This document shows positions 6,295 through 18,068 of a DNA stretch of 25,923 bases, in pieces; positions within the stretch are counted from its first letter, which is position 1, and every line of letters begins with the position of its first letter. The notes below the pieces were generated by a model, which did no database searches, was not told the DNA's origin, and saw only the letters and a list, made by a program, of their open reading frames with translations. This DNA comes from an uncultured Lachnospiraceae bacterium. GTDB lineage: Bacteria > Bacillota > Clostridia > Lachnospirales > Lachnospiraceae. Both the position numbers and the translations under genes were made by a program. The stretch spans positions 5,951 through 31,873 of the forward strand of contig CAPACI010000001.1 of assembly GCA_948576075.1 (NCBI GenBank), written 5' to 3'.

Positions 6295-7737
6295 TTAATA
6301 TGCTTTTCCCCAATAGACTAATTTCTTCGCAGGCTTGCCACAGCAGACGCATACCTGTGAAATTTCTTCCTGATCATGAAACGGCATACAACGCGCCGTC
6401 GCCGCAAAGTCTTCTTTTATTTTATCTTCACAATCCTGATTCCCACACCACATTCCGCGGATAAATCCCGCTTTCTGTTGAATCGTTTCCGTAAATTCTT
6501 CATAATTATGGGCATCGTAAATATGCGCATCCCTGTGTGATTTTGCGCGTTCAAACATACTTTTTTGTATGGAAGCGAGCAATTCTTTTGCCGTTTCGCC
6601 AAGCTGATCAAATGGAACGGCCGTCTTTTCCCTTGTATCCCGACGCGTCAAAATGCACTGTCCCGCTTCCATGTCTTTTGGCCCAATCTCCACACGGAGC
6701 GGGATTCCACGCATCTCCTGTTCAGAAAACTTATAGCCCGGGCTTTTATCTGTTTCGTCTATTTTTACACGGATTCCCGCTTTCGATAAAGTTTCTTTTA
6801 ACTTACGGGCCATTTCCAATACGCCTTCTTTGCGTTGCTGGATCGGAATCACCATAACTTGAGTTGGCGCAATTTCAGGCGGAAGCGCAAGCCCAAAATC
6901 GTCCCCATGCACCATAATCACCGCCCCAATCAAACGGGTCGTAACGCCCCAAGACGTCTGATGCGCGTATTGCAGGCGGTTGTCTTTGTCTGTGTACTGA
7001 ATGCCAAACGCCTTTGCAAATCCGTCCCCGAAATTATGGCTTGTGCCGGACTGCAATGCCTTGCCGTCGTGCATCAGCGCCTCTATTGTATACGTCGCCT
7101 CTGCCCCGGCAAACTTTTCCTTTTCCGTCTTTTTGCCGCGTATCACCGGCATTGCCAAAACTTCTTCACAAAAATCCGCATAGACGTTTAGCATCTGAAC
7201 GGTCCGCTCCTCTGCTTCTTCAGCCGTCGCATGGGCCGTATGGCCTTCCTGCCATAAAAACTCCCTCGACCGCAGGAACGGCCGCGTCTCTTTTTCCCAA
7301 CGCACCACAGAGCACCACTGATTGTAATTTTTGGGCAAATCCCGATAGGACTGTATCACATTTTTATAAAAATCGCAGAACAAAGTCTCTGACGTAGGAC
7401 GGACGCAGAGACGCTCCTGAAGCGGGTTTAACCCCCCGTGGGTTACCCATGCCACTTCCGGCGCAAAGCCTTCTACATGTTCTTTTTCTTTATTTAACAG
7501 GCTTTCCGGTATAAACATCGGCAGATAGACATTCTCCACTCCCGTCTCTTTGAAACGCCTGTCCAATTCTTTCTGGATATTTTCCCAGATGGCGTATCCG
7601 TCCGGCTTTAAAATCATGCATCCTTTTATGGAAGAATAATCAATTAATTCTGCCTTTTTTACAACATCGGTATACCATTGCGCAAAATCTTCCTCCATCG
7701 AGGTAATGGCTTCCACTAATTTCTTTTCTTTTGACAT
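6295..7737 (-). CDS. proS: Prolyl-tRNA synthetase, archaeal/eukaryotic-like type (no bacterial editing insertion)
   Basis: Class II aaRS motifs are present. Its short length, C-terminal zinc-ribbon-like [10 protein letters not shown] and terminal ...WGKAY (the invariant C-terminal Tyr of archaeal-type ProRS) support the type. I prefer the start [11 protein letters not shown] at the complement of 7735-7737, which follows AAAGGAAATAAACCC, over the track ATG at 7761, which has no RBS. Confidence 0.88.
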
Positions 7738-7775
7738 GGGTTTATTTCCTTTCTGTGTCATAGTTTAATGAAGTT

Positions 7776-7805
7776 ATTATAGACTGCGCTATTTTGGTTC
7801 GTCAA
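7776..7805 (-). promoter_or_regulatory. Candidate proS promoter overlapping the stop of the upstream MATE gene
   Basis: Read on the minus strand: TTGACG (complement of 7800-7805), an 18-nt spacer, then TATAAT (complement of 7776-7781). This is about 40 nt upstream of the preferred proS start. The leader is far too short for a T-box. Confidence 0.45.
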
Positions 7806-9136
7806 GTTTTTTCCTCACTGTTTCTGATTTTCAGGTATGCGGCTGCGCAGACTGCCACAGACAACAACGACCCCGCAGGCGCGGCAAGCCCCATCGGAAA
7901 AAGGCTGGCGGCAAAATACTCCGATGCAAAATAAGCTCCCGGAATGCGGATTAAGACAATCGACAAGATATTATGCAGAAATGAAATGCCGGATTTCCCA
8001 CACGCATAAAAATATCCGCTGAAACTAAAATGTATGCCCGCAAATACACAATCCCAGATATAACTGCGCAAATACTGCCCGCCGGATAAAATCACGTCTG
8101 AATCTTCCGTAAAAATCCCAACCAACTGCCCATATGCAGACTGGACAAAAACAGACATGGCAATCCCGAAACCAACCGTGATAAAAATGGCATACCGAAG
8201 CGTCAGTCTTGCGCGCCCTTCCTTTTTTGCCCCTATGTTCTGCGCTGACAAAGCAGAAACGGCAGAAAGCATAGTGGACGGAACCAAAAACACTACGCCT
8301 ATGATTTTTTCCACAATTCCGACTGCCGCCGCATCTACAAGCCCCCTGCGGTTTGCTATAATTGTAATGACAATAAATGCAACTTGTATAAAAGTGTCCT
8401 GCAAGGCTACGGGAACGCCTATCTTTAAGATCCGTTTTAAGGTTATAGGAGATGGCTTAAAATCTGCTTTTTGCAGTTTGATTCCGGCTGAATGCTTTAG
8501 AATCACAAAAAGGGCAAACACAACGCTAAGAGTCTGGGATATAACAGTGCCAAGCGCCGCTCCAGTTGCGCCAAGGGAAAAATAACGGATAAAAATATAA
8601 TCCAATAAAATATTTGACACACACGCAGCCGCCACGAAATACATCGGGCTCTTTGAATCCCCAAGGCCGCGGAATATGGAACTGATGATATTATACGCCG
8701 TGATAAATGGAATCCCAAGGAAGCATATGGTAAGATACGACGCCGTTCCCAAAACCGCTTCTGTCGGAGTTGCCATAATGGCTGTGATCGGGTTTACCAA
8801 AAAAAGCAGCGCTGCCGTAAACCCAATAGAAAGCCCTAAAAACAACACGGCAGTGTTTCCAATGGCTAAAGAAGCTTCCTTTTCCTTCTTCGCCCCAACC
8901 GCTTTTGCGATTGTCACAGTCGCCCCCATCGCAAGTCCGACAATCATCACAGTCAGCATATGCATCACCTGACTGCCGATAGAAACCGCTGTGATGTGGT
9001 TTACGCCGCTATACCTGCCTACCATATATAAATCTGCCATTCCATACAGGGTTTGAAGAAAATAGGAAAATAAATAGGGAATCGAGAATTGTAAAATTGT
9101 TTGAAACACACTGCCAGAGGTTTGATTTTTTTCCAT
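7802..9136 (-). CDS. MATE family efflux transporter
   Basis: Polytopic protein. The N-terminal MATE signature QTILQFSIPYLFSYFLQTLYGMADLYMVGR is present. I prefer the start MEKNQTSGS at the complement of 9134-9136, after AAGGAAGGCAACCGGAAAC. The track extends to 9205 using an upstream alternative start. Confidence 0.8.
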   Translation of the reverse strand: MEKNQTSGSVFQTILQFSIPYLFSYFLQTLYGMADLYMVGRYSGVNHITAVSIGSQVMHMLTVMIVGLAMGATVTIAKAVGAKKEKEASLAIGNTAVLFLGLSIGFTAALLFLVNPITAIMATPTEAVLGTASYLTICFLGIPFITAYNIISSIFRGLGDSKSPMYFVAAACVSNILLDYIFIRYFSLGATGAALGTVISQTLSVVFALFVILKHSAGIKLQKADFKPSPITLKRILKIGVPVALQDTFIQVAFIVITIIANRRGLVDAAAVGIVEKIIGVVFLVPSTMLSAVSALSAQNIGAKKEGRARLTLRYAIFITVGFGIAMSVFVQSAYGQLVGIFTEDSDVILSGGQYLRSYIWDCVFAGIHFSFSGYFYACGKSGISFLHNILSIVLIRIPGAYFASEYFAASLFPMGLAAPAGSLLSVAVCAAAYLKIRNSEEKT

Positions 9137-9232
9137 GTTTCCGGTTGCCTTCCTTTGCGCTTTTATGGATCTACTATAGCAGGGATTGAAAAATGTGTAA
9201 AGCAAACGTCACTTGCATTTTCAGAATAACGC

Positions 9233-9290: not shown

Positions 9291-11732
9291 TTATTCCGCT
9301 TTGATTTCGCCTGTTCGAATGATAAATTTCACGCTTCCCGCCGTATCTTTTGCTTTTCCGCCAAACGATTCATAGGAGCCGCCTAAATCCAAAACATTCT
9401 GAATCCGTTCCGTAAATTCTTTAACGTCGCCCTGATAAGCGTTTACCAGCTTTTCAATTCCTTCTTCGTCAAACTTCACTATTCCGTCTTTTAGTTCAAC
9501 CGATCCATCTTTTAATTGACGGGTTCCGTCTGAGAACTGGCTTACGCCGTCTTTTAATTTTGAAACGCCATTATTTAATTCCGTATTTTTGGAAGCAAGC
9601 GTCTGGCTTCCATTGTATAGCTGGTCAATTCCCGACGTCAGTTTCGGCAATTTATCCGACATTCCGTTCACCGCTTCATCTAATGCCGACATTCCGGAAA
9701 CCAGACTATATCCTGACTCTTTATCCTTTTTTTCAATGTTTCCGGCAATCTGCTTTTTCGCAGACTGCGCGCCTTCGACTGCCGCCACCCCTGCCGCCGT
9801 TTTTGCGCCTTGCTTTACGCTGTCCGCTACAGATGTCCCAACCGTTTCTTTTGCCTGTTCCGCTACGCTTACTACCACTTTAGGCGCGGTCTGTTCCGCT
9901 ACGCTTCCCGCCGTCTGTTCCGCCACACTGCCTGCCACTTGCGCCGCCACACTGCCTGCCACTTGTTCCGCTACGCTGCCTGCCGCCTGTTCCGCCACGC
10001 TTCCCGCCACGTTTGACGCTACGCTTCTGGCTGTCTGATCCGCCACTGCGCCTGCCGCTGTCTGAACTGTCCCGATAAATGCCGAAAGCTGTGTTTCCGC
10101 CGCCTGTGCAACAGCCGCCGCAATCGACGCGTCCGCCATTGCCTGTTCTACGGTAATCCCGTTCGCCTGCGCCGCCTGAACAAAGCCTGCCGCCTGAAAC
10201 GCCGCCTTCAACTGCGCTTTCGTTTCCTCCGAAACCGCGCCTGCAACTGCGGCTGCTGCCTGATCCTTCGCCTGCGCCGCAATAACCGGCTTTTGTGTCT
10301 GTATTCCCGCCACTGCCTGATCCTTTGCCTGTTCCGCAATGACCGGCTTTTGCGACTGTATCCCCGCCACTGCCTGATCTTTCGCCTGCGCCGCCGCCGT
10401 CTGTTTTACAGAGTCGCTTGCAACGGATGCATAAAATGCCTGCGATGCCTGCGATTTGATATTATTGTAACTTTGCGGGTTCGCGTCATCTGCAAACTGC
10501 GTTTCCACTGCCTGCGCCGCCGCTGTTTTTGCCTGCGCCATGGCCGCCTCTTTTTCGCTGTTTCCCATTGGGGCGTTTAGGGCATTATCAAGCGTTTTCA
10601 TGCCATTGTTTAACGTATGGATGCTCGCCGTCAAATCAGCTACGCCGCTGACTAACAGGCCTGTTTCTCCTTTCAATGCGCTGATTCCGTTCGCTAACTG
10701 TCCGGCGCCGTCCGTATATGCCGCAACCCCGTTTTTCAAGGAATCAACCCCTCCCGCAAATTCACCCATTTTCTCATCTAATTCGCCAATCCCGTCAGAA
10801 AGTTTCTCTGAACCGTCTCTTAACTGTCCCGTGGCAGACGTTAAATCTTCCATTTTTTCGTCCATTTCCGTCAAATCAAACGTATAATCTCCGGCAAATT
10901 CCGAAGGCTGCGCCACAACCGTCATTGTCATATCTAAAGAAAAATCCTTTACGTCAGCATTTACTTCCACATAATCCGGAATGGATATGTCTTTTTCTAA
11001 ATCGCCATTCTTTAAGTTCAAGCTTTCCTTTAAGCCCGGCGCCGCCATGCCAACCACAATCATTGTATCCCCGTTTGATATGACTTTTCCATTTTTTACT
11101 TCCACATTTGTAAAATTATCTTTTAAAAGCATACCCGACACAGCCGCAAACGGAACATAGTAATCTCCGTCTTTCTCATGGTTTGTATAGTCAAAACGTA
11201 TTTTTACGTTTCCGCTTTTTCCCGCCAAATCTTTCGGGGAAATTTTTTTCCCGTCCAAATAATAGGATACATTGACGGTAACCGGAGCTTCTTTTGTCGT
11301 CACGCCCTGATAGTAAATATCGTTTCCATCTGCCTGCCATTCAAGGACGTTGCCTTTTTTCTCAAATGTCTCCCTGCCTTTTACGTTTTCTATGTCTTTT
11401 AATTCCGAAACGTCCGAAAGCGCATCTAATTTTTCCGGATTTTTCAGCCATTCGCTGACAATCGCCGATTCTGCGTTTCCATTTGCATCAGCAAGGATAT
11501 AGACGGTTTCTTCTTTCCCAATAGGCGTTTTTTCACTTTCCTCCTTTCGGGAAAGGAAATCTCCCAGTTCCATTTCCTTTGAAACGCTCTCTGTCTTAGC
11601 TTCCCCGCTTTTTGCGGCATAAACGCCGCATATGCCAGTGCCGCCTGTCAAAAGCGCCACCGTCAATACGCCTGCCGTCATGCGGATTACATATTTGTGT
11701 TTGAACCGTTCTTTTAATTTTTTAAACTTCAT
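9291..11732 (-). CDS. YhgE/Pip-like membrane-anchored protein with X-X-X-Leu-X-X-Gly heptad repeat domains and internal Ala/Gln-rich tandem repeats
   Basis: 813 aa. N-terminal transmembrane or signal segment (IRMTAGVLTVALLTGGTGICGVYA). Two blocks of L..G heptads: LRDGSEKLSDGIGELDEKMGEFAGGVDSLKNGVAAYTDGAGQLANGISALKGETGLL... and LDEAVNGMSDKLPKLTSGIDQLYNGSQTLASKNTELNNGVSKLKDGVSQFSDGTRQLKDGSVELKDG. This is the pattern of YhgE/Pip N-terminal-domain proteins. The central repeats are GSVAEQ.A x6 and AEQAKDQAVAGIQ.QKPVI x3. RBS AGGAGGAATTATT before the ATG. Confidence 0.65.
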   Translation of the reverse strand: MKFKKLKERFKHKYVIRMTAGVLTVALLTGGTGICGVYAAKSGEAKTESVSKEMELGDFLSRKEESEKTPIGKEETVYILADANGNAESAIVSEWLKNPEKLDALSDVSELKDIENVKGRETFEKKGNVLEWQADGNDIYYQGVTTKEAPVTVNVSYYLDGKKISPKDLAGKSGNVKIRFDYTNHEKDGDYYVPFAAVSGMLLKDNFTNVEVKNGKVISNGDTMIVVGMAAPGLKESLNLKNGDLEKDISIPDYVEVNADVKDFSLDMTMTVVAQPSEFAGDYTFDLTEMDEKMEDLTSATGQLRDGSEKLSDGIGELDEKMGEFAGGVDSLKNGVAAYTDGAGQLANGISALKGETGLLVSGVADLTASIHTLNNGMKTLDNALNAPMGNSEKEAAMAQAKTAAAQAVETQFADDANPQSYNNIKSQASQAFYASVASDSVKQTAAAQAKDQAVAGIQSQKPVIAEQAKDQAVAGIQTQKPVIAAQAKDQAAAAVAGAVSEETKAQLKAAFQAAGFVQAAQANGITVEQAMADASIAAAVAQAAETQLSAFIGTVQTAAGAVADQTARSVASNVAGSVAEQAAGSVAEQVAGSVAAQVAGSVAEQTAGSVAEQTAPKVVVSVAEQAKETVGTSVADSVKQGAKTAAGVAAVEGAQSAKKQIAGNIEKKDKESGYSLVSGMSALDEAVNGMSDKLPKLTSGIDQLYNGSQTLASKNTELNNGVSKLKDGVSQFSDGTRQLKDGSVELKDGIVKFDEEGIEKLVNAYQGDVKEFTERIQNVLDLGGSYESFGGKAKDTAGSVKFIIRTGEIKAE
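9855..10045. repeat. Roughly 30-nt in-frame tandem repeat, 5-6 copies (encodes GSVAEQxA)
   Basis: Unit of the form ctgttccgc(c/t)ac(a/g)ct(g/t)cc(t/c)gcc(a/g)c.. reiterated between about 9880 and 10015, inside the CDS 9291-11732. Confidence 0.8.
10248..10390. repeat. Roughly 57-60-nt in-frame tandem repeat, about 2.4 copies (encodes AEQAKDQAVAGIQxQKPVI)
   Basis: Unit gcctgatcc(t)ttcgcctg(c/t)(g/t)ccgcaat(a/g)accggcttttg(t/c)g(t/a)ctgtat(t/c)cccgccact at 10248-10304 and 10305-10361, then a partial third copy. Confidence 0.8.
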
Positions 11733-11743
11733 AATAATTCCTC

Positions 11744-13831
11744 CTAATTTTTATTCTTTATTTTAGGCAAAAAGCCGATGCTTGTTTTCACGATACATTT
11801 ATCTAACATCAAAAACATTGCCGGAAGCAGAAACGCTACGACGAGCAGGCTTATCACCGCGCCCCTCGCCAAAAGCATACAAAGCGAACTAATCATGTCT
11901 ATGCTTGAATAAAGCGCCACGCCAAATGTGGCGGCAAAGAAACTTAACGCGCTGACGGCGACAGATTGTAAAGAGCTGTTTAACGCCGTAATAACGGCTT
12001 CCCTTTTTCCCGCGCCGCGGCTGCGTTCCCGTTTATATTTATTCGTCATTAAAATCGCATAATCTACCGTTGCGCCAAGCTGAATTGTCCCGATTACAAT
12101 CGAAGCGATAAACGGAAGAACCGTGTTCGTAAAATACGGGATTCCCATATTGATAAAAATTGCAAACTCAATCACCAGCACCAGTATCACCGGAAGGGAC
12201 GCAGATTTTAGGACAATGGCTATAATCAGGAAAATCAGGACAATCGACGCCGCATTGACTATTTTAAAATCCCGATCAGTAATGGTAATTAAATCCTGCG
12301 TACATGGGGCTTCTCCAATTAACATAGCGGTTTCGTCATACTTTTTAATGACTTCCCGAATGGCATCGCACTGCGCGTTGACCTCGTCCGTCCCTGTTTT
12401 ATATTCAGACAAAACATAAATCATCTGGTATGTCCCATTGTTTAATTTCTCTTTTATCCTGTCTGGGACAAATTCGGCGGGCGTTAAGGGCCCTGTCAGC
12501 GCATCTAACCCCAATGCAAGTTTCACGCCGTCCACTTCTTTTAACTCTTTTTCCATTTGAAACGCTTCGCTTTTCGGCAATTCACTGTCCGCTAAAATAA
12601 CATGCGCCGCTCCCATGCCAAATTCATGTTCTAAAGCGTCCCCCGCTTCTACGCTTCCCAACTCTTTCGGCAGCGTCCCCACTAAATCATAGTACACTTC
12701 GTTGTGCCCCTGCGCATAATACATCGGCCCGATTCCCGCCAAAAACAGGACAATAAAAACCGGATAATGCTTTGCCACAAAACCGCCGATTCTCCCAAGG
12801 TCAGGCATCAGTGGCTTATGCTTTGTTTTTTCCAGCCATTTATCCATTGCAAGGATCATCGCCGGAAGAATTGTCACACAGCCTATCACCCCAAAGACTA
12901 CTCCCTTTGCCATCACAATGCCTAAATCCATGCCAAGGGTAAATGTCATAAAGCACATAGCTAAAAATCCCGCAATCGTCGTAATGGAACTTCCGACAAC
13001 AGAAGTGACCGTCTGGGAAATTGCATGCGCCATCGCGCGGTTTTTATCGTCCGGATAACGCTCTTGGTTTTCTTCATAACTGTGCCACAGGAAAATGGAA
13101 TAATCCATCGTCACTGCAAGCTGTAAGACTGCCGCAAGCGCCTGCGTAATAAAGGAAATTTCTCCGGCAATCCGGTTCGTGCCAAGGTTATAGACAATCG
13201 CCATTCCAATGCTGAGCAGGAAAATAGCGGGAATCAAATAAGAGTCCATCGTCAGCGCCAACGCCAGCGCCGACAATAACGCGGCAATCACCACATACAT
13301 AACCGCCTCACTGTTGCAGATTTTTTTTATGTCCGTGACAACTGCCGACATTCCACTTAACAGACACTTTTTGCCTGTTAATTCTCTAATTTCTTCAATC
13401 GCATCAAGCGTTTCGTCCGAAGACATTGACGTGTCGAATGTAAGAATTAAAAGGGAACTTTTTGTATCTGCGTTTTTTAACGTCTCCGCAAGTTCATCCG
13501 GAAGAATATCCATCGGCACAGATAAATCCGCTATACTTCCATACCAAATCACATCTTTGACATGGCCCACTTCTTTTAATTCGCCCTCGAGCGTTTGTAT
13601 GTCTTTGTCCTCCAATCCCTTCACAACGCAGACGGAAAACGCGCCCGTGCCAAACTCCTCAAGCAAAATCTCCTGTCCCTCCATCGTTTCAATGTCTTTC
13701 GGAAGATAAGAAAGTATATCATAATTGATTCTCGTGCTTAAATATCCAATCACGGCGGGAATCAGAAGCAGAAAACTTGCGGTTAAAATCAATTTTCGCA
13801 GTTGAACCACTTTTTTTCCAAATTTTATCAT
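11744..13831 (-). CDS. MMPL family (RND-superfamily) membrane transporter
   Basis: 695 aa. Two clusters of about six TM helices, each after a soluble loop. Characteristic MMPL segments: LSGMSAVVTDIKKI..., FLAMCFMTFTLGMDLGIVMAKGVVFGVIG..., AILMTNKYKRERSRG. Strong RBS GGAGAGGGACG before the ATG. An 11-nt gap separates it from the downstream YhgE-like gene. Confidence 0.85.
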   Translation of the reverse strand: MIKFGKKVVQLRKLILTASFLLLIPAVIGYLSTRINYDILSYLPKDIETMEGQEILLEEFGTGAFSVCVVKGLEDKDIQTLEGELKEVGHVKDVIWYGSIADLSVPMDILPDELAETLKNADTKSSLLILTFDTSMSSDETLDAIEEIRELTGKKCLLSGMSAVVTDIKKICNSEAVMYVVIAALLSALALALTMDSYLIPAIFLLSIGMAIVYNLGTNRIAGEISFITQALAAVLQLAVTMDYSIFLWHSYEENQERYPDDKNRAMAHAISQTVTSVVGSSITTIAGFLAMCFMTFTLGMDLGIVMAKGVVFGVIGCVTILPAMILAMDKWLEKTKHKPLMPDLGRIGGFVAKHYPVFIVLFLAGIGPMYYAQGHNEVYYDLVGTLPKELGSVEAGDALEHEFGMGAAHVILADSELPKSEAFQMEKELKEVDGVKLALGLDALTGPLTPAEFVPDRIKEKLNNGTYQMIYVLSEYKTGTDEVNAQCDAIREVIKKYDETAMLIGEAPCTQDLITITDRDFKIVNAASIVLIFLIIAIVLKSASLPVILVLVIEFAIFINMGIPYFTNTVLPFIASIVIGTIQLGATVDYAILMTNKYKRERSRGAGKREAVITALNSSLQSVAVSALSFFAATFGVALYSSIDMISSLCMLLARGAVISLLVVAFLLPAMFLMLDKCIVKTSIGFLPKIKNKN

Positions 13832-13876
13832 CGTCCCTCTCCTCTCTATGTGTCAGATCTGTTTTATCGTTAGTAT

Positions 13877-13910
13877 AAAAAAAAAGACTGAACCTGAACA
13901 GATTCAATCT
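13877..13910 (-). terminator. Rho-independent terminator between the TetR gene and the MMPL gene
   Basis: Read on the minus strand: AGATTGAA, a 10-nt loop, TTCAGTCT (8-bp stem with one G-U), then nine T. A possible -10 TATACT begins on the last T of the run, pointing to the MMPL ATG 45 nt downstream. Confidence 0.6.
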
Positions 13911-13994
13911 TTTCGTTTTGTTTTCCTTTTTATACAGATAAAGTGATTTGTCGTTTTTTTCAGAACACCGCATTTACATTGTATGGAGTTTAAA

Positions 13995-14555
13995 CTACCC
14001 TAATAATACTTCCTCAATGGAATGTTTCATTATGTAGTCATAAATTTCAGCCAGTTCCTTCGCCGAAACCGCAAGCCCGCTTTTAATCCAGACAAGCGCC
14101 ACAGAACAGATTGACTGCGCATAATATTCCGCAATCCGCTCCGGCGTAAGCCACTGGAATTTCATGATTTTATCCTTCGGATTTTTCTCAATAATTTCCA
14201 GCAAAATCCCCTTCACACAGCTTCTGGCAATGAGTTCGAATGAATTTTGCCCTTCTAACTTTGCCGCTTTTATATAGAACTTTTTCTCCTTTTCTATATT
14301 CATAAATAACAGCAAAAGCGCCTCGTCCATCATCTGGTTCTCAATTAATGGACGGATTGGCTCTAGCAGATCCGTCCATATAATCCACTCCAAAAGCTCA
14401 TATTTATCCTGAAAATGATTGTAAAACGTCGGGCGTATTACGCCCGCTTTGTCCGTGATTTCTTTTACCGTGATTTTTTCAATCGGATTATTTAACGCAA
14501 GTTCTTTCAAACTTTCCGCAAGCAGAGTATCCGTTTCATTTCTGAACGCCGCCAT
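13995..14555 (-). CDS. TetR/AcrR family transcriptional regulator
   Basis: 186 aa. N-terminal HTH ITVKEITDKAGVIRPTFYNHFQDKYELL. RBS GGGAGGATCT before the ATG. Its start is 9 nt after the MATE stop. Confidence 0.85.
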   Translation of the reverse strand: MAAFRNETDTLLAESLKELALNNPIEKITVKEITDKAGVIRPTFYNHFQDKYELLEWIIWTDLLEPIRPLIENQMMDEALLLLFMNIEKEKKFYIKAAKLEGQNSFELIARSCVKGILLEIIEKNPKDKIMKFQWLTPERIAEYYAQSICSVALVWIKSGLAVSAKELAEIYDYIMKHSIEEVLLG

Positions 14556-14564
14556 AGATCCTCC

Positions 14565-15929
14565 CTACTTTCTCGCCGCTATCATAGACTCCAAATTTTT
14601 ATTCACCTTCTTCAAATAAACGCATGTGACCGCCAAAGCCGCAAGCTCCGCGAGCGGGAACGAAAGCCAGACCGCCTCTAATATTCCCGTCAGGGAAAGC
14701 AGATATGCCGCCGGAAGCAAAATCACAAGCTGGCGTATAACCGACAATACCAGACTGTATACGCTTTTCCCCAATCCCTGAAACACCCCGCTCGCCACAA
14801 TGGAAACGCCGGCAAAGAGATAGCATGCGCTTAAAATCCGAAGCGCCGGAACGCCGATTTCAATCATCTGGCCCGATGCATTAAAAAGCATTAAAAGCTG
14901 TTTCGGCATTACTTCCGCCGTCAAAAACCCTGCAATCATCAACACAACCGCCGCTATCATGCTGCTTTTCATCACCTTCATAATCCTGTCTTTATATCCG
15001 GCTCCGTAATTATACGCCACAATCGGGATTAACCCGTTATTTAACCCAAACACAGGCATAAAGATAAAACTCTGCAATTTAAAGAATACGCCGAACACAG
15101 CCGCCGCCGTTGAAGTAAACCCAAGCAATATCTTGTTCATAAAAAATGTCATAACGGAACCAATCGACTGCATTAAAATCGCCGGAACCGCAACTTCATA
15201 AATCTGCAACAGCGTCTGTTTGTCCGGACGGATTTTTGAAAGCGTAAGATGGATTTCCGTATTTTTTTTCTGGTTGTAATAAAAACCAAATACCATCGCC
15301 ACGATCTGCCCGAACACAGTCGCCGCCGCCGCGCCTGCAATTCCCATTTTCGGGAAGCCAAACAGCCCAAAAATCAATATCGGGTCAAAAATCAGGTTAA
15401 TCACTGCGCCCGTCGTCTGCGTAATCATCGTGCAGACCGTCCGCCCCGTCGCCTGTAAAAGACGTTCAAAACAAAACTGCCCATACAATCCAAAACTTGC
15501 CGCCGTACAAATCAAAAGATACGTCTTTCCATACGCTATAATTTCCGGTATATCTGTCTGTAGTTCAAAATACAGACCGGAAAAGCATACGCCGATCAGC
15601 AAAAACAGCAGATAATTTGCCCCCGCCAGTATAACGGAATTGCCTGCCGCTTTGTCCACTTCCTCAAACCGCTTTTCGCCCAGCCGTTTCGAAAGGAGCG
15701 CGTTTACCCCGACTCCCGTCCCCGCCGCGACCGCTATCATAAAATTTTGAAGTGGGAACGCCAGAGAAACTGCCGTCAGCGCATATTCATCAATCTGCGC
15801 GACAAATATACTGTCCACAATATTATACAATGCCTGAACCAGCATGGATATTACCATCGGCAGCGAAATATTAACTAACAGTTTATTAACCGGCATCGTC
15901 CCCATCTTGTTCTCTGTCTGCGCTTCCAT
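14565..15929 (-). CDS. MATE family efflux transporter
   Basis: 454 aa. MATE N-terminal signature MPVNKLLVNISLPMVISMLVQALYNIVDSIFVAQI. Twelve predicted TM helices. Its ATG is 5 nt after the stop of the upstream DUF308 gene. Confidence 0.85.
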   Translation of the reverse strand: MEAQTENKMGTMPVNKLLVNISLPMVISMLVQALYNIVDSIFVAQIDEYALTAVSLAFPLQNFMIAVAAGTGVGVNALLSKRLGEKRFEEVDKAAGNSVILAGANYLLFLLIGVCFSGLYFELQTDIPEIIAYGKTYLLICTAASFGLYGQFCFERLLQATGRTVCTMITQTTGAVINLIFDPILIFGLFGFPKMGIAGAAAATVFGQIVAMVFGFYYNQKKNTEIHLTLSKIRPDKQTLLQIYEVAVPAILMQSIGSVMTFFMNKILLGFTSTAAAVFGVFFKLQSFIFMPVFGLNNGLIPIVAYNYGAGYKDRIMKVMKSSMIAAVVLMIAGFLTAEVMPKQLLMLFNASGQMIEIGVPALRILSACYLFAGVSIVASGVFQGLGKSVYSLVLSVIRQLVILLPAAYLLSLTGILEAVWLSFPLAELAALAVTCVYLKKVNKNLESMIAARK

Positions 15930-15934
15930 TTCTT

Positions 15935-16576
15935 CTACATCTCACTTTCTTCCGTAACATCAAGTTCAACAGCTTCCGCCACTATTTCCGCATCTGCATC
16001 CACTGCCTGAAACCCTTCCATCTTACTCCGCATCTCTTTTGCTGTTTTCGTCACTTGGAAAATAATCCAAAGATCCGTAATCCCGTCATAAATTAGCGCC
16101 ACGCCCACAAACGCCAGCGCTACGGAAATTACGCCAAAGCAATCAAAGATGCAGGCGATCCCAAGCCCCATTCCAAATACTGCCATAAGCAGGATCACCC
16201 AGTAAAATTCATAACCGCCGCGCCTTGTTTCAAGCGCATACTTAAAATCTTCAAACCCATGCACAAACAGCACAACGCCAATCCCAATTAAAAGCATACT
16301 CTGGATGCTGTACGGCTTTAAATAGATCCATATGCCCACAAACAAAAGAACAAGCCCAAGCGGCAGGTTAATCCCATGTCTTTCCTGCTTATTCATAATA
16401 TAGCTAATGATTCGGATTAAGCCCAAAACGGCAATCACTGCCGCAATCGCCTTACACGCAATCGTCGTCACTTCTGTCGGCCATATCATCAACACTGTTC
16501 CAAATACAATACAGCACAGCGCGCTGATAATGACGTCCAGCTTTATCCTTTGAAATAATTCTTTCATTCTATCCAA
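15935..16576 (-). CDS. Small six-TM membrane protein, DUF308/HdeD-like, with an acidic C-terminal tail
   Basis: 213 aa. Six hydrophobic helices with repeated G...I..G motifs. Acidic tail VDADAEIVAEAVELDVTEESEM. Only loosely recognisable, so the family assignment is tentative. Confidence 0.4.
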   Translation of the reverse strand: MDRMKELFQRIKLDVIISALCCIVFGTVLMIWPTEVTTIACKAIAAVIAVLGLIRIISYIMNKQERHGINLPLGLVLLFVGIWIYLKPYSIQSMLLIGIGVVLFVHGFEDFKYALETRRGGYEFYWVILLMAVFGMGLGIACIFDCFGVISVALAFVGVALIYDGITDLWIIFQVTKTAKEMRSKMEGFQAVDADAEIVAEAVELDVTEESEM

Positions 16577-16585
16577 TGCCTCCTT

Positions 16586-17929
16586 TTACGCTTTTTCTTT
16601 TACCACAATAGAAGGAAGCGCAATTTCACTGTACTGCGTTGAAATAATCTTCCCTCGTGACGCCCGTGAATAAATTCCCTGAAACCTGCCGCCATAAACA
16701 AATAATCCAGTCAGGTTTGACACTTCAATAAAGTCCGCATCCTCCCCTTTTGAAAAATCTATATTTTTCGTCTGGTACGGGACGCAAAATCCCTGAACCA
16801 AAAACCCTTCTTTCCTGTGGGCGTCAACCATTTTTTTCCACTCCTCCACAGAAGAAAACTCCACGCCAGCAAACACGCCCTTAGAACCATAAGAATCTAA
16901 GGGTTTTATAATATAACGGTCTTTTTCGGCTATCATCTTATCATATGGAAGATAATCCGCCGTCATTAACGCCGTGTACGGCACATGCGCCTTGACATAC
17001 GCGCGTTCTGCATCCGTTAGAAACTCTTGCGTCATTGGGTGATGCAAGATCTGGTACAAAACTTTATTATGCGCAATCTGCGTCGTAAAATCCCCGATCA
17101 GGCAAACGGCGTCCGCTTTCACTGCCGCAATAAAATCCGTCACTTCACTGTAATGCTCCATAATATCACTTGTCACGGCGCGGCGGTAAATTAAGTCAAT
17201 CGGTTTTCCCTCTTTCCCATAAAGCCTTTCGCCGTCAAATTTCATATCCCGTATTTCACAGATTTCACAATCTATGCCATGCGTTCTGTAACTTTCGGCA
17301 AAAATTTCAAACTCATTATTCGTCGCGCTCTCCATAAAATCTACGATTGCAACATTCGGCTTTTTCACCGCCCCTTTGATTGTCTGATAAATCCGAAGCG
17401 ACGTTTCCACCCATGTGTCAAATAATTCAAATGTCTGGATTTCATATTGTTTGGCAAGCTCTTGATAGCCTTCCGTCAATTTCAACGCATGGTTTAATTC
17501 ACGGTCTTCGTTCATGGCGCTTGAGCCGTCCGTATTAAACTCGCAAAATTTAAAGTCTTTTGTTTCTTCATTATAAAATAGATCAATCCGCGCAATCGGG
17601 ATATTGCCAGAATAACGTTTTTCACGCAGGATTAATTCCTCTAACTCTTTCGAAAAGCCAAACAAAGAGCGGTATGTTTGGTTTTCCCTGTATTGCGCAG
17701 TCACTTTATCAAAAATTCCATACAAAACGTCAATTAACTCTGTAAAACACTCAATATCCGCTTCCGTAAACATCTTCGGAATATACAATGTGCTAACGCA
17801 TCTTCCATGGTATTTCGCTGAGGAATGATTCATATAATCAATTTCTTTTAATGCGCTTTTCGCATGGATTCCTTTATCTTTTGCAACGCTTTCACAATAG
17901 GCTTGATTTAATTCACAAAGCTTTAGCAT
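16586..17929 (-). CDS. Glutathionylspermidine-synthase-family (YgiC/YjfC-like) ATP-grasp amide ligase
   Basis: The pre-ATP-grasp motif ARIDLFYNEETKDFKFCEFNTDGSSA matches R.D....g..K.LE.NaDTPts of the GspS family. Later motifs are YIIKPLDSYGSKGVFAG and GLFVYGGRFQGIYSRAS. I prefer the start MLKLCELNQ at the complement of 17927-17929, which follows AAAGGAAGAAAAACC. The track start at 17947 lacks an RBS. Confidence 0.6.
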   Translation of the reverse strand: MLKLCELNQAYCESVAKDKGIHAKSALKEIDYMNHSSAKYHGRCVSTLYIPKMFTEADIECFTELIDVLYGIFDKVTAQYRENQTYRSLFGFSKELEELILREKRYSGNIPIARIDLFYNEETKDFKFCEFNTDGSSAMNEDRELNHALKLTEGYQELAKQYEIQTFELFDTWVETSLRIYQTIKGAVKKPNVAIVDFMESATNNEFEIFAESYRTHGIDCEICEIRDMKFDGERLYGKEGKPIDLIYRRAVTSDIMEHYSEVTDFIAAVKADAVCLIGDFTTQIAHNKVLYQILHHPMTQEFLTDAERAYVKAHVPYTALMTADYLPYDKMIAEKDRYIIKPLDSYGSKGVFAGVEFSSVEEWKKMVDAHRKEGFLVQGFCVPYQTKNIDFSKGEDADFIEVSNLTGLFVYGGRFQGIYSRASRGKIISTQYSEIALPSIVVKEKA

Positions 17930-17960
17930 GGTTTTTCTTCCTTTCATTATAGTAAAATGT

Positions 17961-17996
17961 ATTATAACACACTTATTTTAAAAAGCAATCTGATAA
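17961..17996 (-). promoter_or_regulatory. Candidate promoter for the ATP-grasp/DUF308/MATE/TetR operon
   Basis: Read on the minus strand: extended -10 TGTTATAAT (complement of about 17959-17967) with a weak -35 TTGCTT 17 nt upstream. It lies immediately 3' of the hairpin at 18011-18068. Confidence 0.4.
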
Positions 17997-18010
17997 AAAA
18001 AGAAAATTGG

Positions 18011-18068
18011 AAAAACCCATATTTCTATGGCAATACGCCACGATAGGCTCTGCCTGAAATATGGGTTT
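18011..18068 (-). terminator. Long hairpin (13-bp perfect stem, 30-nt loop) followed by a T-rich tract; probable terminator of the giant surface-protein gene
   Basis: aaacccatatttc (18013-18025) pairs with gaaatatgggttt (18056-18068). On the minus strand this is followed by TTCCAATTTTCTTTTTTTATCAG. Confidence 0.45.

Follow-up and report, generated by a model that had tools for sequence, protein, structure and literature searches.

The window, that is, the whole stretch of 25,923 nucleotides analysed here, carries on its minus strand a run of four genes, followed by a transporter gene and a gene for a repeat protein. In the direction of transcription, the genes and signals are:

17961..17988, minus strand: putative promoter of the four-gene run, with a -35-like TTGCTT (17988..17983), a 16-nt spacer and an extended -10 element TGtTATAAT (17969..17961)
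16586..17929, minus strand: ATP-grasp amide ligase, 447 aa (the open reading frame 17947..16586, with an upstream ATG, gives 453 aa)
15935..16567, minus strand: DUF308/HdeD-like membrane protein, 210 aa (Pfam match and hydropathy)
14565..15929, minus strand: MATE-family efflux transporter, 454 aa (PF01554, TIGR00797)
13995..14555, minus strand: TetR-family regulator, 186 aa (TetR_N and TetR_C_8)
13932..13952, minus strand: degenerate copy of palindrome 1, a candidate TetR operator with the consensus ATACAAA-N6-9-TTTGTAT
13881..13914, minus strand: hairpin with T-run, coinciding with palindrome 2 (GATTGAATAT-N4-ATATTCAATC), then TATACT and the next gene
11744..13831, minus strand: MMPL-family (RND-type) transporter, 695 aa (PF03176, 178.6 bits; synteny)
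9291..11732, minus strand: secreted or anchored protein of 813 aa with xxxLxxG-like heptads and Ala/Gln-rich repeats (synteny)

Do the four genes form one transcription unit? The earlier note had placed all of them in 14565-17947, but this range spans three and leaves the TetR gene outside. Read from the sequence, the gaps are 18 or 9 nt between ligase and DUF308, 5 nt between DUF308 and MATE, and 9 nt between MATE and TetR. The spacing of 5-9 nt given in the note is thus right if DUF308 starts at TTG 16576, while the likelier start, ATG 16567, makes the first gap 18 nt. For the ligase, the second ATG (17929) was taken as the start, which agrees with the 447-aa homologues and with the ribosome binding site AAAGGAAG. 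Scanning inside the run gave weak promoter- and terminator-like matches, none convincing and at a density not above that of shuffled sequence. Given the gaps of 5-18 nt, the lack of a convincing internal terminator and the hairpin with T-run after TetR, all four genes probably share one transcript.

The putative promoter was recognised by direct reading of the sequence; the consensus scan missed it because its -35 element matches just 3/6 positions. A similar -10 element, TGTTATACT, lies 5' of the ligase gene in several relatives, and a -10-like box is the only feature common to the upstream regions of 18 relatives. A search of the whole window against Rfam at gathering thresholds gave no match to a riboswitch or leader RNA.

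At the other end of the run, the intergenic sequences of 16 loci were compared. Two conserved palindromes are concentrated in the gap between TetR and MMPL, palindrome 1 with 15 matches in 1.25 Mb of loci. Both palindromes are degenerate in the window, and its copy of palindrome 1 was assigned by position in the aligned spacer because it falls below the 3-mismatch search. When a candidate TetR operator was sought at the ligase promoter, neither palindrome was found elsewhere in the window above chance. The sequence of palindrome 2 is kept ahead of the MMPL gene from 55% to 100% ligase identity, which speaks for a site bound by protein, a terminator-promoter junction or both. The clean terminator described in the note after TetR needs qualification: a hairpin and T-run do exist, but the stem (13914..13881) has just 3 G-C pairs, and its conservation across species as a palindrome before the next gene makes a function beyond termination probable.

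The ligase family and its partner GCS2

To which family does the ligase belong? The motif ARIDLFYNEE...EFNTDGSSA is indeed present in this ATP-grasp protein. It reaches no Pfam threshold, its sole match being CP_ATPgrasp_2 (25 bits, cutoff 32), and it does not match GSP_synth (PF03738, gathering threshold 29.3 bits) at E<=0.01. Two relatives do pass PF03738 (L019 with 37.5 bits, P0417 with 35.1 bits), so the ligase family lies at the edge of PF03738. The eukaryotic glutathione-synthetase families of Pfam gave no match for the window ligase; three relatives searched at E<=1 gave none either. Against the PDB by sequence, the sole match is trypanothione synthetase (TryS) over a 75-residue motif region, so the assignment rests on the predicted structure. 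In an AF2 model (pLDDT 90.3) the pre-ATP-grasp and ATP-grasp fold of GspS/TryS/YgiC is predicted. The best Foldseek matches are glutathione and homoglutathione synthetases from human, plants and yeast (E 3e-18 to 3e-16), followed by GspS, YgiC and Cp1B; overall, the modelled fold is about as close to YgiC and GspS as to eukaryotic glutathione synthetase.

Residues R114, D116, E130, N132 and S137 of the window ligase align with R328, D330, E344, N346 and S351 of TryS and are invariant across the ligase family; the distal K513, K548 and R613 of TryS are not alignable by sequence, and the match covers the five others. These five are Mg-ATP or acyl-phosphate catalytic residues in TryS (PMC2427367). 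With 447 aa the ligase has no further domain, and the N-terminal CHAP amidase of the bifunctional GspS/TryS is absent. Membership in the GspS/YgiC-YjfC family, as proposed in the note, is borne out by fold and catalytic residues, but not by the PF03738 score.

For the gene neighbourhood, relatives of the ligase were collected from 102 loci and grouped at 90% identity into 60 clusters, 19 inside the clade of the window and 41 outside it (39 evaluable). Genomic coupling to the glutamate-cysteine ligase gamma-GCS, which catalyses the opening step of glutathione synthesis, here in its plant-type form GCS2, is found in 35 of these 39 clusters, with GCS2 immediately upstream in 24 and fused to the ligase in 11; four are without it. 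In an exhaustive search, about 34 of the best 150 representatives are 700-1070 aa long, and all seven long representatives tested have an N-terminal GCS2 domain. Starting from GCS2 genes, the ligase is again next downstream in two sampled cases. The partner proteins match the plant-type gamma-GCS TIGR01436 with E 1e-55 to 1e-61. The family is large and Clostridia-centred, and its members almost always stand directly after GCS2 or are fused to the C-terminus of GCS2. It also appears to be uncharacterised. No other neighbour of the GCS2-ligase pair recurs in more than 4 of the 41 clusters; the recurrent families, including polysaccharide deacetylase, bactofilin, ArgJ and alcohol dehydrogenase, are all unrelated to thiols. 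Weak hints come from a DJ-1/PfpI protein near GCS2-ligase (in L022 and L041/42) and, in L115-L118, from a protein with a metallo-beta-lactamase fold and the size of glyoxalase II.

The window clade, 19 clusters of Roseburia-like Lachnospiraceae, has no GCS2 in the ligase neighbourhood, and tblastn searches of the window and of 31 clade loci (426 kb) found no GCS2 remnants. Has the ligase itself changed? Mean ligase identity is 49% between the clade and the GCS2-linked group and 47% inside that group. The two groups share 71 invariant positions, and a single column is group-specific (Y214 against F). On sequence comparison, the clade is nested inside the GCS2-linked diversity. Its ligase shows no divergence in the active site and has a dN/dS of 0.07-0.11 within the clade, a sign of strong purifying selection. 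In the window the reading frame is intact and has a good ribosome binding site. One metagenome-assembled genome carries a split copy (P0340/P0341).

The DUF308, MATE, TetR and MMPL genes

The annotation of the other three genes in the note stood up well. DUF308 matches PF03729 with 53.2 bits over two stretches, and it has roughly six hydrophobic segments by eye (five clear peaks in the hydropathy scan) and the acidic C-terminal tail DADAEIVAEAVELDVTEESEM. The MATE protein scores 163.4 bits for PF01554 over two stretches and 206.7 for TIGR00797, whose cutoff is 147.4. The TetR family is supported by matches to the N-terminal HTH domain TetR_N (32.3 bits, cutoff 24) and to the C-terminal ligand domain TetR_C_8 (41.6 bits, cutoff 26.1).

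How constant are these genes as neighbours? The gene next after the ligase is DUF308 in 18 of the 19 clade clusters and in none of the 41 outside. A divergent DUF308 adjoins DJ-1-GCS2-ligase in Absicoccus (L022), and an HMM search for further DUF308 genes near GCS2-linked ligases found none beyond it. MATE is present in 13 of the 19 clade clusters, where the order ligase-DUF308-(s76)-MATE-TetR recurs. It is missing from six, four of which have an HD-domain gene in its place, while L028 has both; loci without MATE include L006, L010, L026, L027 and L038. In the neighbourhood of the GCS2-linked loci it is absent throughout. The pattern of occurrence indicates that MATE is a lineage-specific insertion between DUF308/s76 and TetR in part of the clade.

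The constant partners of TetR lie downstream, namely MMPL and the 813-aa gene, which has no Pfam family and always follows MMPL. MMPL comes after TetR in 11 clade clusters, in two clusters outside and in the ligase-less loci L111 and L112. Three loci have DUF308-s76-TetR without a ligase, with MMPL and the 813-aa gene next in L111 and L112, and an HD gene included in L110 (DUF308-s76-HD5-TetR). Conversely, GCS2-ligase-s76-TetR-MMPL-813aa occurs without DUF308 or MATE (L043-L067). The arrangement GCS2-ligase-s76-TetR-MMPL is also carried by an abundant human-gut species.

Two modules or one operon?

What, then, does the run represent? Our best explanation, with a probability of about 0.55 as a whole, is a mosaic of two unrelated evolutionary modules that are now adjacent, not one synthesis-and-export system, in which the window ligase is an orphaned gamma-Glu-Cys-dependent, glutathione-synthetase-like enzyme beside a TetR-controlled MMPL/MATE efflux block. 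The ligase, as the first module, would act on gamma-Glu-Cys by the standard ATP-grasp mechanism, in which the C-terminal carboxylate is phosphorylated and then joined to an amine. Glycine is the most likely amine and a polyamine a possible one, which would yield glutathione or a close analogue. The adjacent GCS2 would have been lost or relocated in the lineage of the window. Since the ligase is under strong purifying selection with its active site unchanged, it presumably draws on gamma-Glu-Cys from uptake or from synthesis encoded elsewhere in the genome. The second module would be DUF308-(s76)-TetR-MMPL-813-aa protein, into which MATE was inserted in part of the clade. The conserved palindromes between TetR and MMPL are most likely the sites through which TetR represses its own gene and the MMPL operon. 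The two modules may be functionally linked, considering that ligase and DUF308 are paired in nearly all clade clusters with very short gaps and that, in lineages down to 55% identity, the ligase keeps its place beside the s76-TetR-MMPL block.

One may ask whether the clade ligase instead acts like E. coli YgiC/YjfC or GspS, joining gut-derived peptide or glutathione to spermidine or another polyamine, with no glutathione synthesis. We regard this as unlikely, though it is the strongest of the alternatives. YgiC and YjfC, whose substrates the note had called largely unknown, were reported in 2023 to be peptide-spermidine ligases (Pederick et al., as cited in PMC12568646), which makes that statement dated. 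The TryS match in the PDB, the relatives passing the GSP_synth threshold, the alignment of E141 with Glu-355 of TryS (proposed to position polyamines) and the lack of GCS2 nearby speak for such an activity. However, there are essentially no residue changes between the clade and its GCS2-linked or GCS2-fused relatives, so polyamine specificity would have to hold for the whole family. Where GCS2 is the partner and no glutathione synthetase is present, the acyl donor is more likely to be gamma-Glu-Cys than glutathione, and glutathione synthetases rank first in Foldseek.

The earlier note favoured a produce-and-export or self-resistance operon, in which the ligase forms a peptide- or polyamine-type conjugate, MATE exports it and TetR senses it; DUF308 would then be an accessory membrane component. 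The short gaps, the absence of convincing internal signals and the recurrent gene order in 13 of the 19 species-level clusters are what such an operon would have. The gene-neighbourhood analysis proposed in the note confirms the joint linkage to MATE and TetR inside the Roseburia-like clade only. MATE is missing from some clusters even there and may give way to an HD-domain gene; outside the clade no ligase adjoins a MATE gene, and the TetR-MMPL block is kept with the ligase in just two clusters. The conserved partners and cis-elements of TetR sit downstream with MMPL, DUF308-s76-TetR also occurs without the ligase, and the conserved partner of the ligase is glutamate-cysteine ligase, a cytoplasmic thiol-pathway enzyme. 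Once the comparison goes past close relatives, MATE and TetR as dedicated exporter and sensor of the ligase product fail the refuting test that the note itself had set, and this reading is improbable.

Slightly more doubtful is a functional pair of ligase and DUF308, the latter replacing GCS2 by supplying substrate (e.g. by import of gamma-Glu-Cys or a dipeptide) or by anchoring the ligase at the membrane. The mutually exclusive pattern of DUF308 and GCS2 fits it, as does the divergent DUF308 in Absicoccus. But the 19 clusters are one shallow clade, so this correlation may reflect a single ancestral rearrangement. Moreover, DUF308 goes with s76-TetR-MMPL in ligase-less genomes, and we know of no transport function for DUF308. 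Finally, that the ligase is a decaying relic without current function after the loss of GCS2 is very improbable, since the missing pathway partner and the one split copy stand against the low dN/dS across the clade, the retention of all 71 family-invariant residues, catalytic ones included, and the intact reading frame with its good ribosome binding site.

The low-molecular-weight thiols of strictly anaerobic Clostridia are poorly defined: glutathione has been reported absent from anaerobic clostridia, with unidentified thiols present (PMC6336425), and Eubacterium rectale is reported to make glutathione with no canonical gshA/gshB found (2026, PMC13445673). By its genomic distribution the GCS2-coupled family, which comes both as gene pairs and as bifunctional fusions, seems widespread in gut Clostridia. 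We tentatively suggest that bacteria may have in it a third type of glutathione (or gamma-Glu-Cys-amide) synthetase that has so far gone unrecognised. The window clade would then be a derived state in which the second enzyme is kept without the first, beside DUF308, and gamma-Glu-Cys is made elsewhere or salvaged from the host. For the missing thiol pathway in gut Clostridia, the pair of GCS2 and ATP-grasp ligase, which is often fused, offers a concrete candidate that can be tested cheaply, and its structural closeness to the eukaryotic glutathione synthetase bears on the origin of the eukaryotic enzyme. Experiments guided by an export-operon reading would look for a secreted conjugate. The comparative data instead suggest that the ligase serves cytoplasmic thiol metabolism and that the TetR-controlled envelope or efflux module stands apart from it.

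Comparison with known systems

The synthetase domains (PF03738) of E. coli YgiC/YjfC and of GspS/TryS have about 15% identity to the window ligase. The bifunctional GspS/TryS carry a CHAP amidase domain, which the window ligase does not, and the conserved partner differs as well. YgiC and YjfC presumably adjoin YgiB and YjfM, while the partner in the window ligase family is GCS2, so its acyl donor is probably gamma-Glu-Cys, not glutathione or a peptide. With the eukaryotic glutathione and homoglutathione synthetases (human 2HGS, soybean 3KAL, potato 5OES, yeast 1M0W) identity is 13-16%, and the likeness, seen in the model, is structural only.

In architecture there are bacterial parallels. GshF (GshAB) of Streptococcus, Listeria and Clostridium perfringens carries its ATP-grasp domain after the gamma-GCS domain, and C. 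acetobutylicum has separate gamma-GCS and GS (Kino et al. 2007, as cited in PMC2940859). The GCS2-ligase family has the same order, either fused or as adjacent genes. The rest of the run recalls the TetR-regulated MmpL/RND and MATE modules (mycobacterial TetR-MmpL, MepR-MepA), with TetR beside MMPL and MATE and with palindromes in the spacer between regulator and transporter. It differs from them in the C-terminal domain of the regulator, which is TetR_C_8/DhaS-like, and in that MMPL is always followed by an uncharacterised repeat protein of 750-830 aa.

The four-gene run and the fold of its ligase

The locus is best explained as a composite of two separable parts, a ligase module and a TetR/MMPL efflux block, and we put the probability of this reading at roughly 0.55. 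All ORFs longer than 100 aa in the window are on the minus strand.

Genes in and around the four-gene run
within 18253-25909, minus: CHAT-domain protein, cut off by the end of the window (886 aa in locus L001)
within 18253-25909, minus: 797-aa protein with eukaryote-type Major Vault Protein (MVP) shoulder domain (PF11978, 75 bits)
within 18253-25909, minus: 1390-aa surface protein (Big_2/Flg_new/CarboxypepD_reg)
17947..16586, minus: ATP-grasp ligase, 453 aa (447 aa from 17929)
16576 or 16567..15935, minus: DUF308 protein, 213 or 210 aa (PF03729, 53 bits)
15929..14565, minus: MATE pump, 454 aa (PF01554, 163 bits; TIGR00797, 206.7 against a cutoff of 147.4)
14555..13995, minus: TetR regulator, 186 aa (TetR_N and TetR_C_8)
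13831..11744, minus: MMPL transporter, next downstream after TetR and a hairpin
11732..9291, minus: 813-aa protein without Pfam family, after MMPL
9205..7802, minus: second MATE (PF01554, 176 bits), just downstream of the MMPL/813-aa pair

The earlier note had placed four co-transcribed genes at 14565-17947. The genes exist, with gaps of 9 or 18, then 5, then 9 nt, but that range was wrong and left TetR outside. AAAGGAAG precedes the second ATG (17929) of the ligase ORF, and a start there gives 447 aa, the length of all ligase homologues. Upstream of the ligase, a weak -35 accompanies an extended -10 (TGtTATAAT, 17969..17961). Between the 1390-aa gene and this putative promoter lies a long imperfect hairpin (18002-18079) with arms of 24 nt, a loop of 30 nt and a T-run after it; it is probably the terminator of the surface-protein gene. 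An Rfam search of the whole window, this hairpin included, gave no RNA family. The ligase region is 100% identical to that of the mouse-gut Lachnospiraceae MAG MGBC163558. The first three genes listed form a tight run upstream of the ligase, and an MVP-shoulder protein beside a CHAT protease is unusual for a Lachnospiraceae genome.

What kind of enzyme is the ligase? It stays below every Pfam threshold (CP_ATPgrasp_2, 25 bits where 32 are required; no match to GSP_synth) and matches no NCBIfam model, and the sole match in a PDB sequence search was a 75-residue motif region of trypanothione synthetase (TryS), with E 0.038 for the single sequence and 7e-4 for the family profile. Some relatives at 45-50% identity pass the GSP_synth threshold. 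With a confident AlphaFold model (49 homologues as input; pLDDT 90.3, pTM 0.89), Foldseek ranked eukaryotic glutathione and homoglutathione synthetases at the top (E 3e-18 to 3e-16, TM 0.60-0.66), followed by E. coli GspS, the CP-ATP-grasp protein 3N6X, YgiC, YjfC and the E-64 ligase Cp1B. TryS residues R328, D330, E344, N346 and S351 contact Mg-ATP and the acyl-phosphate (PMC2427367); R114, D116, E130, N132 and S137 of the window ligase align to them and are invariant throughout the family. Given this ranking and these residues, the GspS/YgiC superfamily assignment of the earlier note holds at the level of the predicted fold. In current terms YgiC and YjfC count as peptide-spermidine ligases (Pederick et al. 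2023, cited in PMC12568646). That the window enzyme is itself a YgiC-like peptide/polyamine ligase is conceivable, if doubtful; YgiC and YjfC are among the Foldseek matches, ranked after the glutathione synthetases.

GCS2 as partner of the ligase family

Is there any constant partner of this family? Loci were collected from reference genomes (23), from metagenomes through the family alignment (80) and, for several, by exact-protein look-ups, and were annotated by phmmer with reference proteins. The ligase domains of 102 loci were clustered at 90% identity into 60 clusters, 41 of them outside the window clade, that is, outside the closest relatives of the window ligase. In 24 of these 41, a gene for GCS2, a plant-type glutamate-cysteine ligase, directly precedes the ligase gene in the same orientation, and the two often overlap at the ligase start; in another 11 they are fused. 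GCS2 is missing in 4, and 2 could not be judged at contig ends. The partner proteins match the plant-type model TIGR01436 over their full length at E 1e-55 to 1e-61, under the equivalog cutoff, with EgtA second best.

When 1.84 billion representatives were searched exhaustively with phmmer, 274 ligase-family representatives came out at E<=1e-30. Among the best 150 of these 274, about 34 are 700-1070 aa long with the ligase C-terminal, and all 7 long ones tested have an N-terminal GCS2 domain. Sampling from the GCS2 side found 2 further GCS2 genes, each followed by a ligase, and many GCS2 matches are on contigs of equal size to those carrying ligase matches. No other neighbour of the GCS2-ligase pair recurs in more than 4 clusters. 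Glutathione synthesis (gshA-gshB, GshF) is organised as gamma-glutamylcysteine synthetase with an ATP-grasp peptide ligase after it or in fusion with it. The GCS2-ligase pair is this organisation assembled from different families.

Some neighbours and fusions should also be noticed. Apart from the fusions with GCS2, the ligase is also joined to a C-terminal GNAT acetyltransferase in representative protein P0507 and to a methyltransferase-like region in P0504, a hint that the product may be modified further. DJ-1/PfpI proteins adjoin some pairs (L022:6127-6726; L041/L042 about 7495-8046), and a 262-aa metallo-beta-lactamase-fold protein of glyoxalase-II size stands beside others (L115-L118 about 6544-7338); such neighbours point weakly to electrophile or methylglyoxal detoxification.

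The window clade and the efflux block

Members of the window clade, 19 clusters in all, share at least 64% identity with the window ligase; their sources are Roseburia zhanii and MAGs of Roseburia, Eubacterium and Lachnospiraceae, largely of mouse gut. None of the 19 has GCS2 within 6-8 kb of the ligase, and no GCS2 remnant was detectable in 426 kb of its loci. The clade is nested in the GCS2-linked diversity, with a mean identity of 49% between the groups against 47% within the GCS2-linked group. What, then, stands beside its ligase?

Gene orders in relatives
window clade, ancestral order: ligase-DUF308-s76-(MATE, HD-domain gene or nothing)-TetR-MMPL-813aa
abundant human-gut lineage (24 loci at 55% identity): GCS2-ligase-s76-TetR-MMPL-813aa, without DUF308 and MATE
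L111/L112, distant DUF308 homologues: DUF308-s76-118aa-TetR-MMPL-813aa-like, without ligase
L110, distant DUF308 homologue: DUF308-s76-HD-TetR, without ligase
s76: L029:7381-7611; L026:7963-8193; L028:7954-8184; L111:6582-6812; absent from the window

The conserved protein s76 (76 aa, cysteine-free, without Pfam match; MEFKMERMGLLEVGD...FFVTVEFDE) is encoded in most relatives, ligase present or not, with the ligase or DUF308 on one side and TetR on the other, and was lost in the window lineage. On the simplest reading, TetR would regulate MMPL together with the 813-aa gene, probably also itself; MATE would be a later insertion. A homologue of the second MATE lies between TetR and MMPL in L009. 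At its N-terminus the 813-aa protein, always encoded after MMPL, carries a signal or anchor. It also contains xxxLxxG-like heptads as well as tandem repeats rich in Ala and Gln, with several AGSVAEQ-type units and about three AEQAKDQAVAGIQSQKPVI-like ones; the GC-rich patch at about 9500-10500 is due to these repeats.

The TetR-to-MMPL spacer (window 13832-13994; L003-L068) is conserved in sequence across lineages with ligases only 55% identical. It holds two palindromes, ATACAAA-N6-9-TTTGTAT and GATTGAATAT-N4-ATATTCAATC, the latter with a T-run and TATACT after it. In 1.25 Mb of loci both are concentrated in this spacer, and the region upstream of the window's ligase contains neither. They are candidate operators over a terminator-promoter junction. 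The "clean terminator" once read after TetR does have a hairpin and T-run (13914..13881), but in the window this is where the second palindrome stands, in degenerate form.

The earlier proposal of a dedicated exporter and sensor for the ligase product is not supported: MATE is found in only 13 of the 19 clade clusters, the modules are separable, with DUF308-s76-TetR also occurring without ligase, and the partner of the ligase is GCS2. Dedicated synthesis and export is accordingly quite unlikely. DUF308 directly follows the ligase in 18 of the 19 clusters, which favours a functional ligase-DUF308 pair, a reading we nevertheless consider improbable. A relic is barely credible, with pairwise dN/dS of 0.07-0.11 within the clade and the catalytic residues kept. 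Moreover, 71 positions are invariant in both the clade and the GCS2-linked group, and the sole group-specific column is a conservative one, Y214/F. Such purifying selection and unchanged residues indicate that the orphan ligase is functional, with no sign of new specificity. Returning to the two-module reading, the locus is a derived, orphaned copy of the ligase set beside an efflux block.

Possible reaction and known systems

By the ATP-grasp mechanism of TryS/GspS and glutathione synthetase (PMC2427367), the ligase would phosphorylate a C-terminal carboxylate and join it to an amine. Since the family is coupled to GCS2, the carboxylate donor is probably gamma-Glu-Cys; glycine as the amine would give glutathione, and a polyamine or other amino acid an analogue. 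For the window ligase, gamma-Glu-Cys would have to be supplied by a gene elsewhere or taken up.

Two published gaps make the GCS2-coupled family worth testing. Surveys of anaerobic clostridia report unidentified thiols and no glutathione (PMC6336425), and work from 2026 on Eubacterium rectale measured glutathione from this species, did not find canonical gshA/gshB, and invoked bcp and ArgC (PMC13445673). Human-gut metagenome loci L043-L067, with protein cluster P0109 of 1577 members, represent a very abundant Lachnospiraceae lineage with GCS2-ligase-s76-TetR-MMPL, its GCS2 often called as fragments of 120-290 aa. If this lineage is E. rectale, its GCS2-ligase pair would be a candidate for the pathway reported missing (PMC13445673).

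Full-text searches turned up no description of a GCS2 and GspS-like pair or fusion; the amidoligase survey of Iyer et al. 2009 may note related associations. The GCS2-coupled family is uncharacterised, and is a more interesting result than the window locus itself. The known Firmicute glutathione routes are GshF and C. acetobutylicum GS, and both use a D-Ala-D-Ala-ligase-like ATP-grasp. The enzymes of C. acetobutylicum are reportedly treated by Kino et al. 2007, cited as reference 39 of PMC2940859. GspS and TryS act on glutathione and spermidine, and eukaryotic glutathione synthetases on gamma-Glu-Cys and glycine. Judged from its predicted model, the ligase belongs to a distinct family, at about equal distance to GspS/YgiC and to eukaryotic glutathione synthetase.
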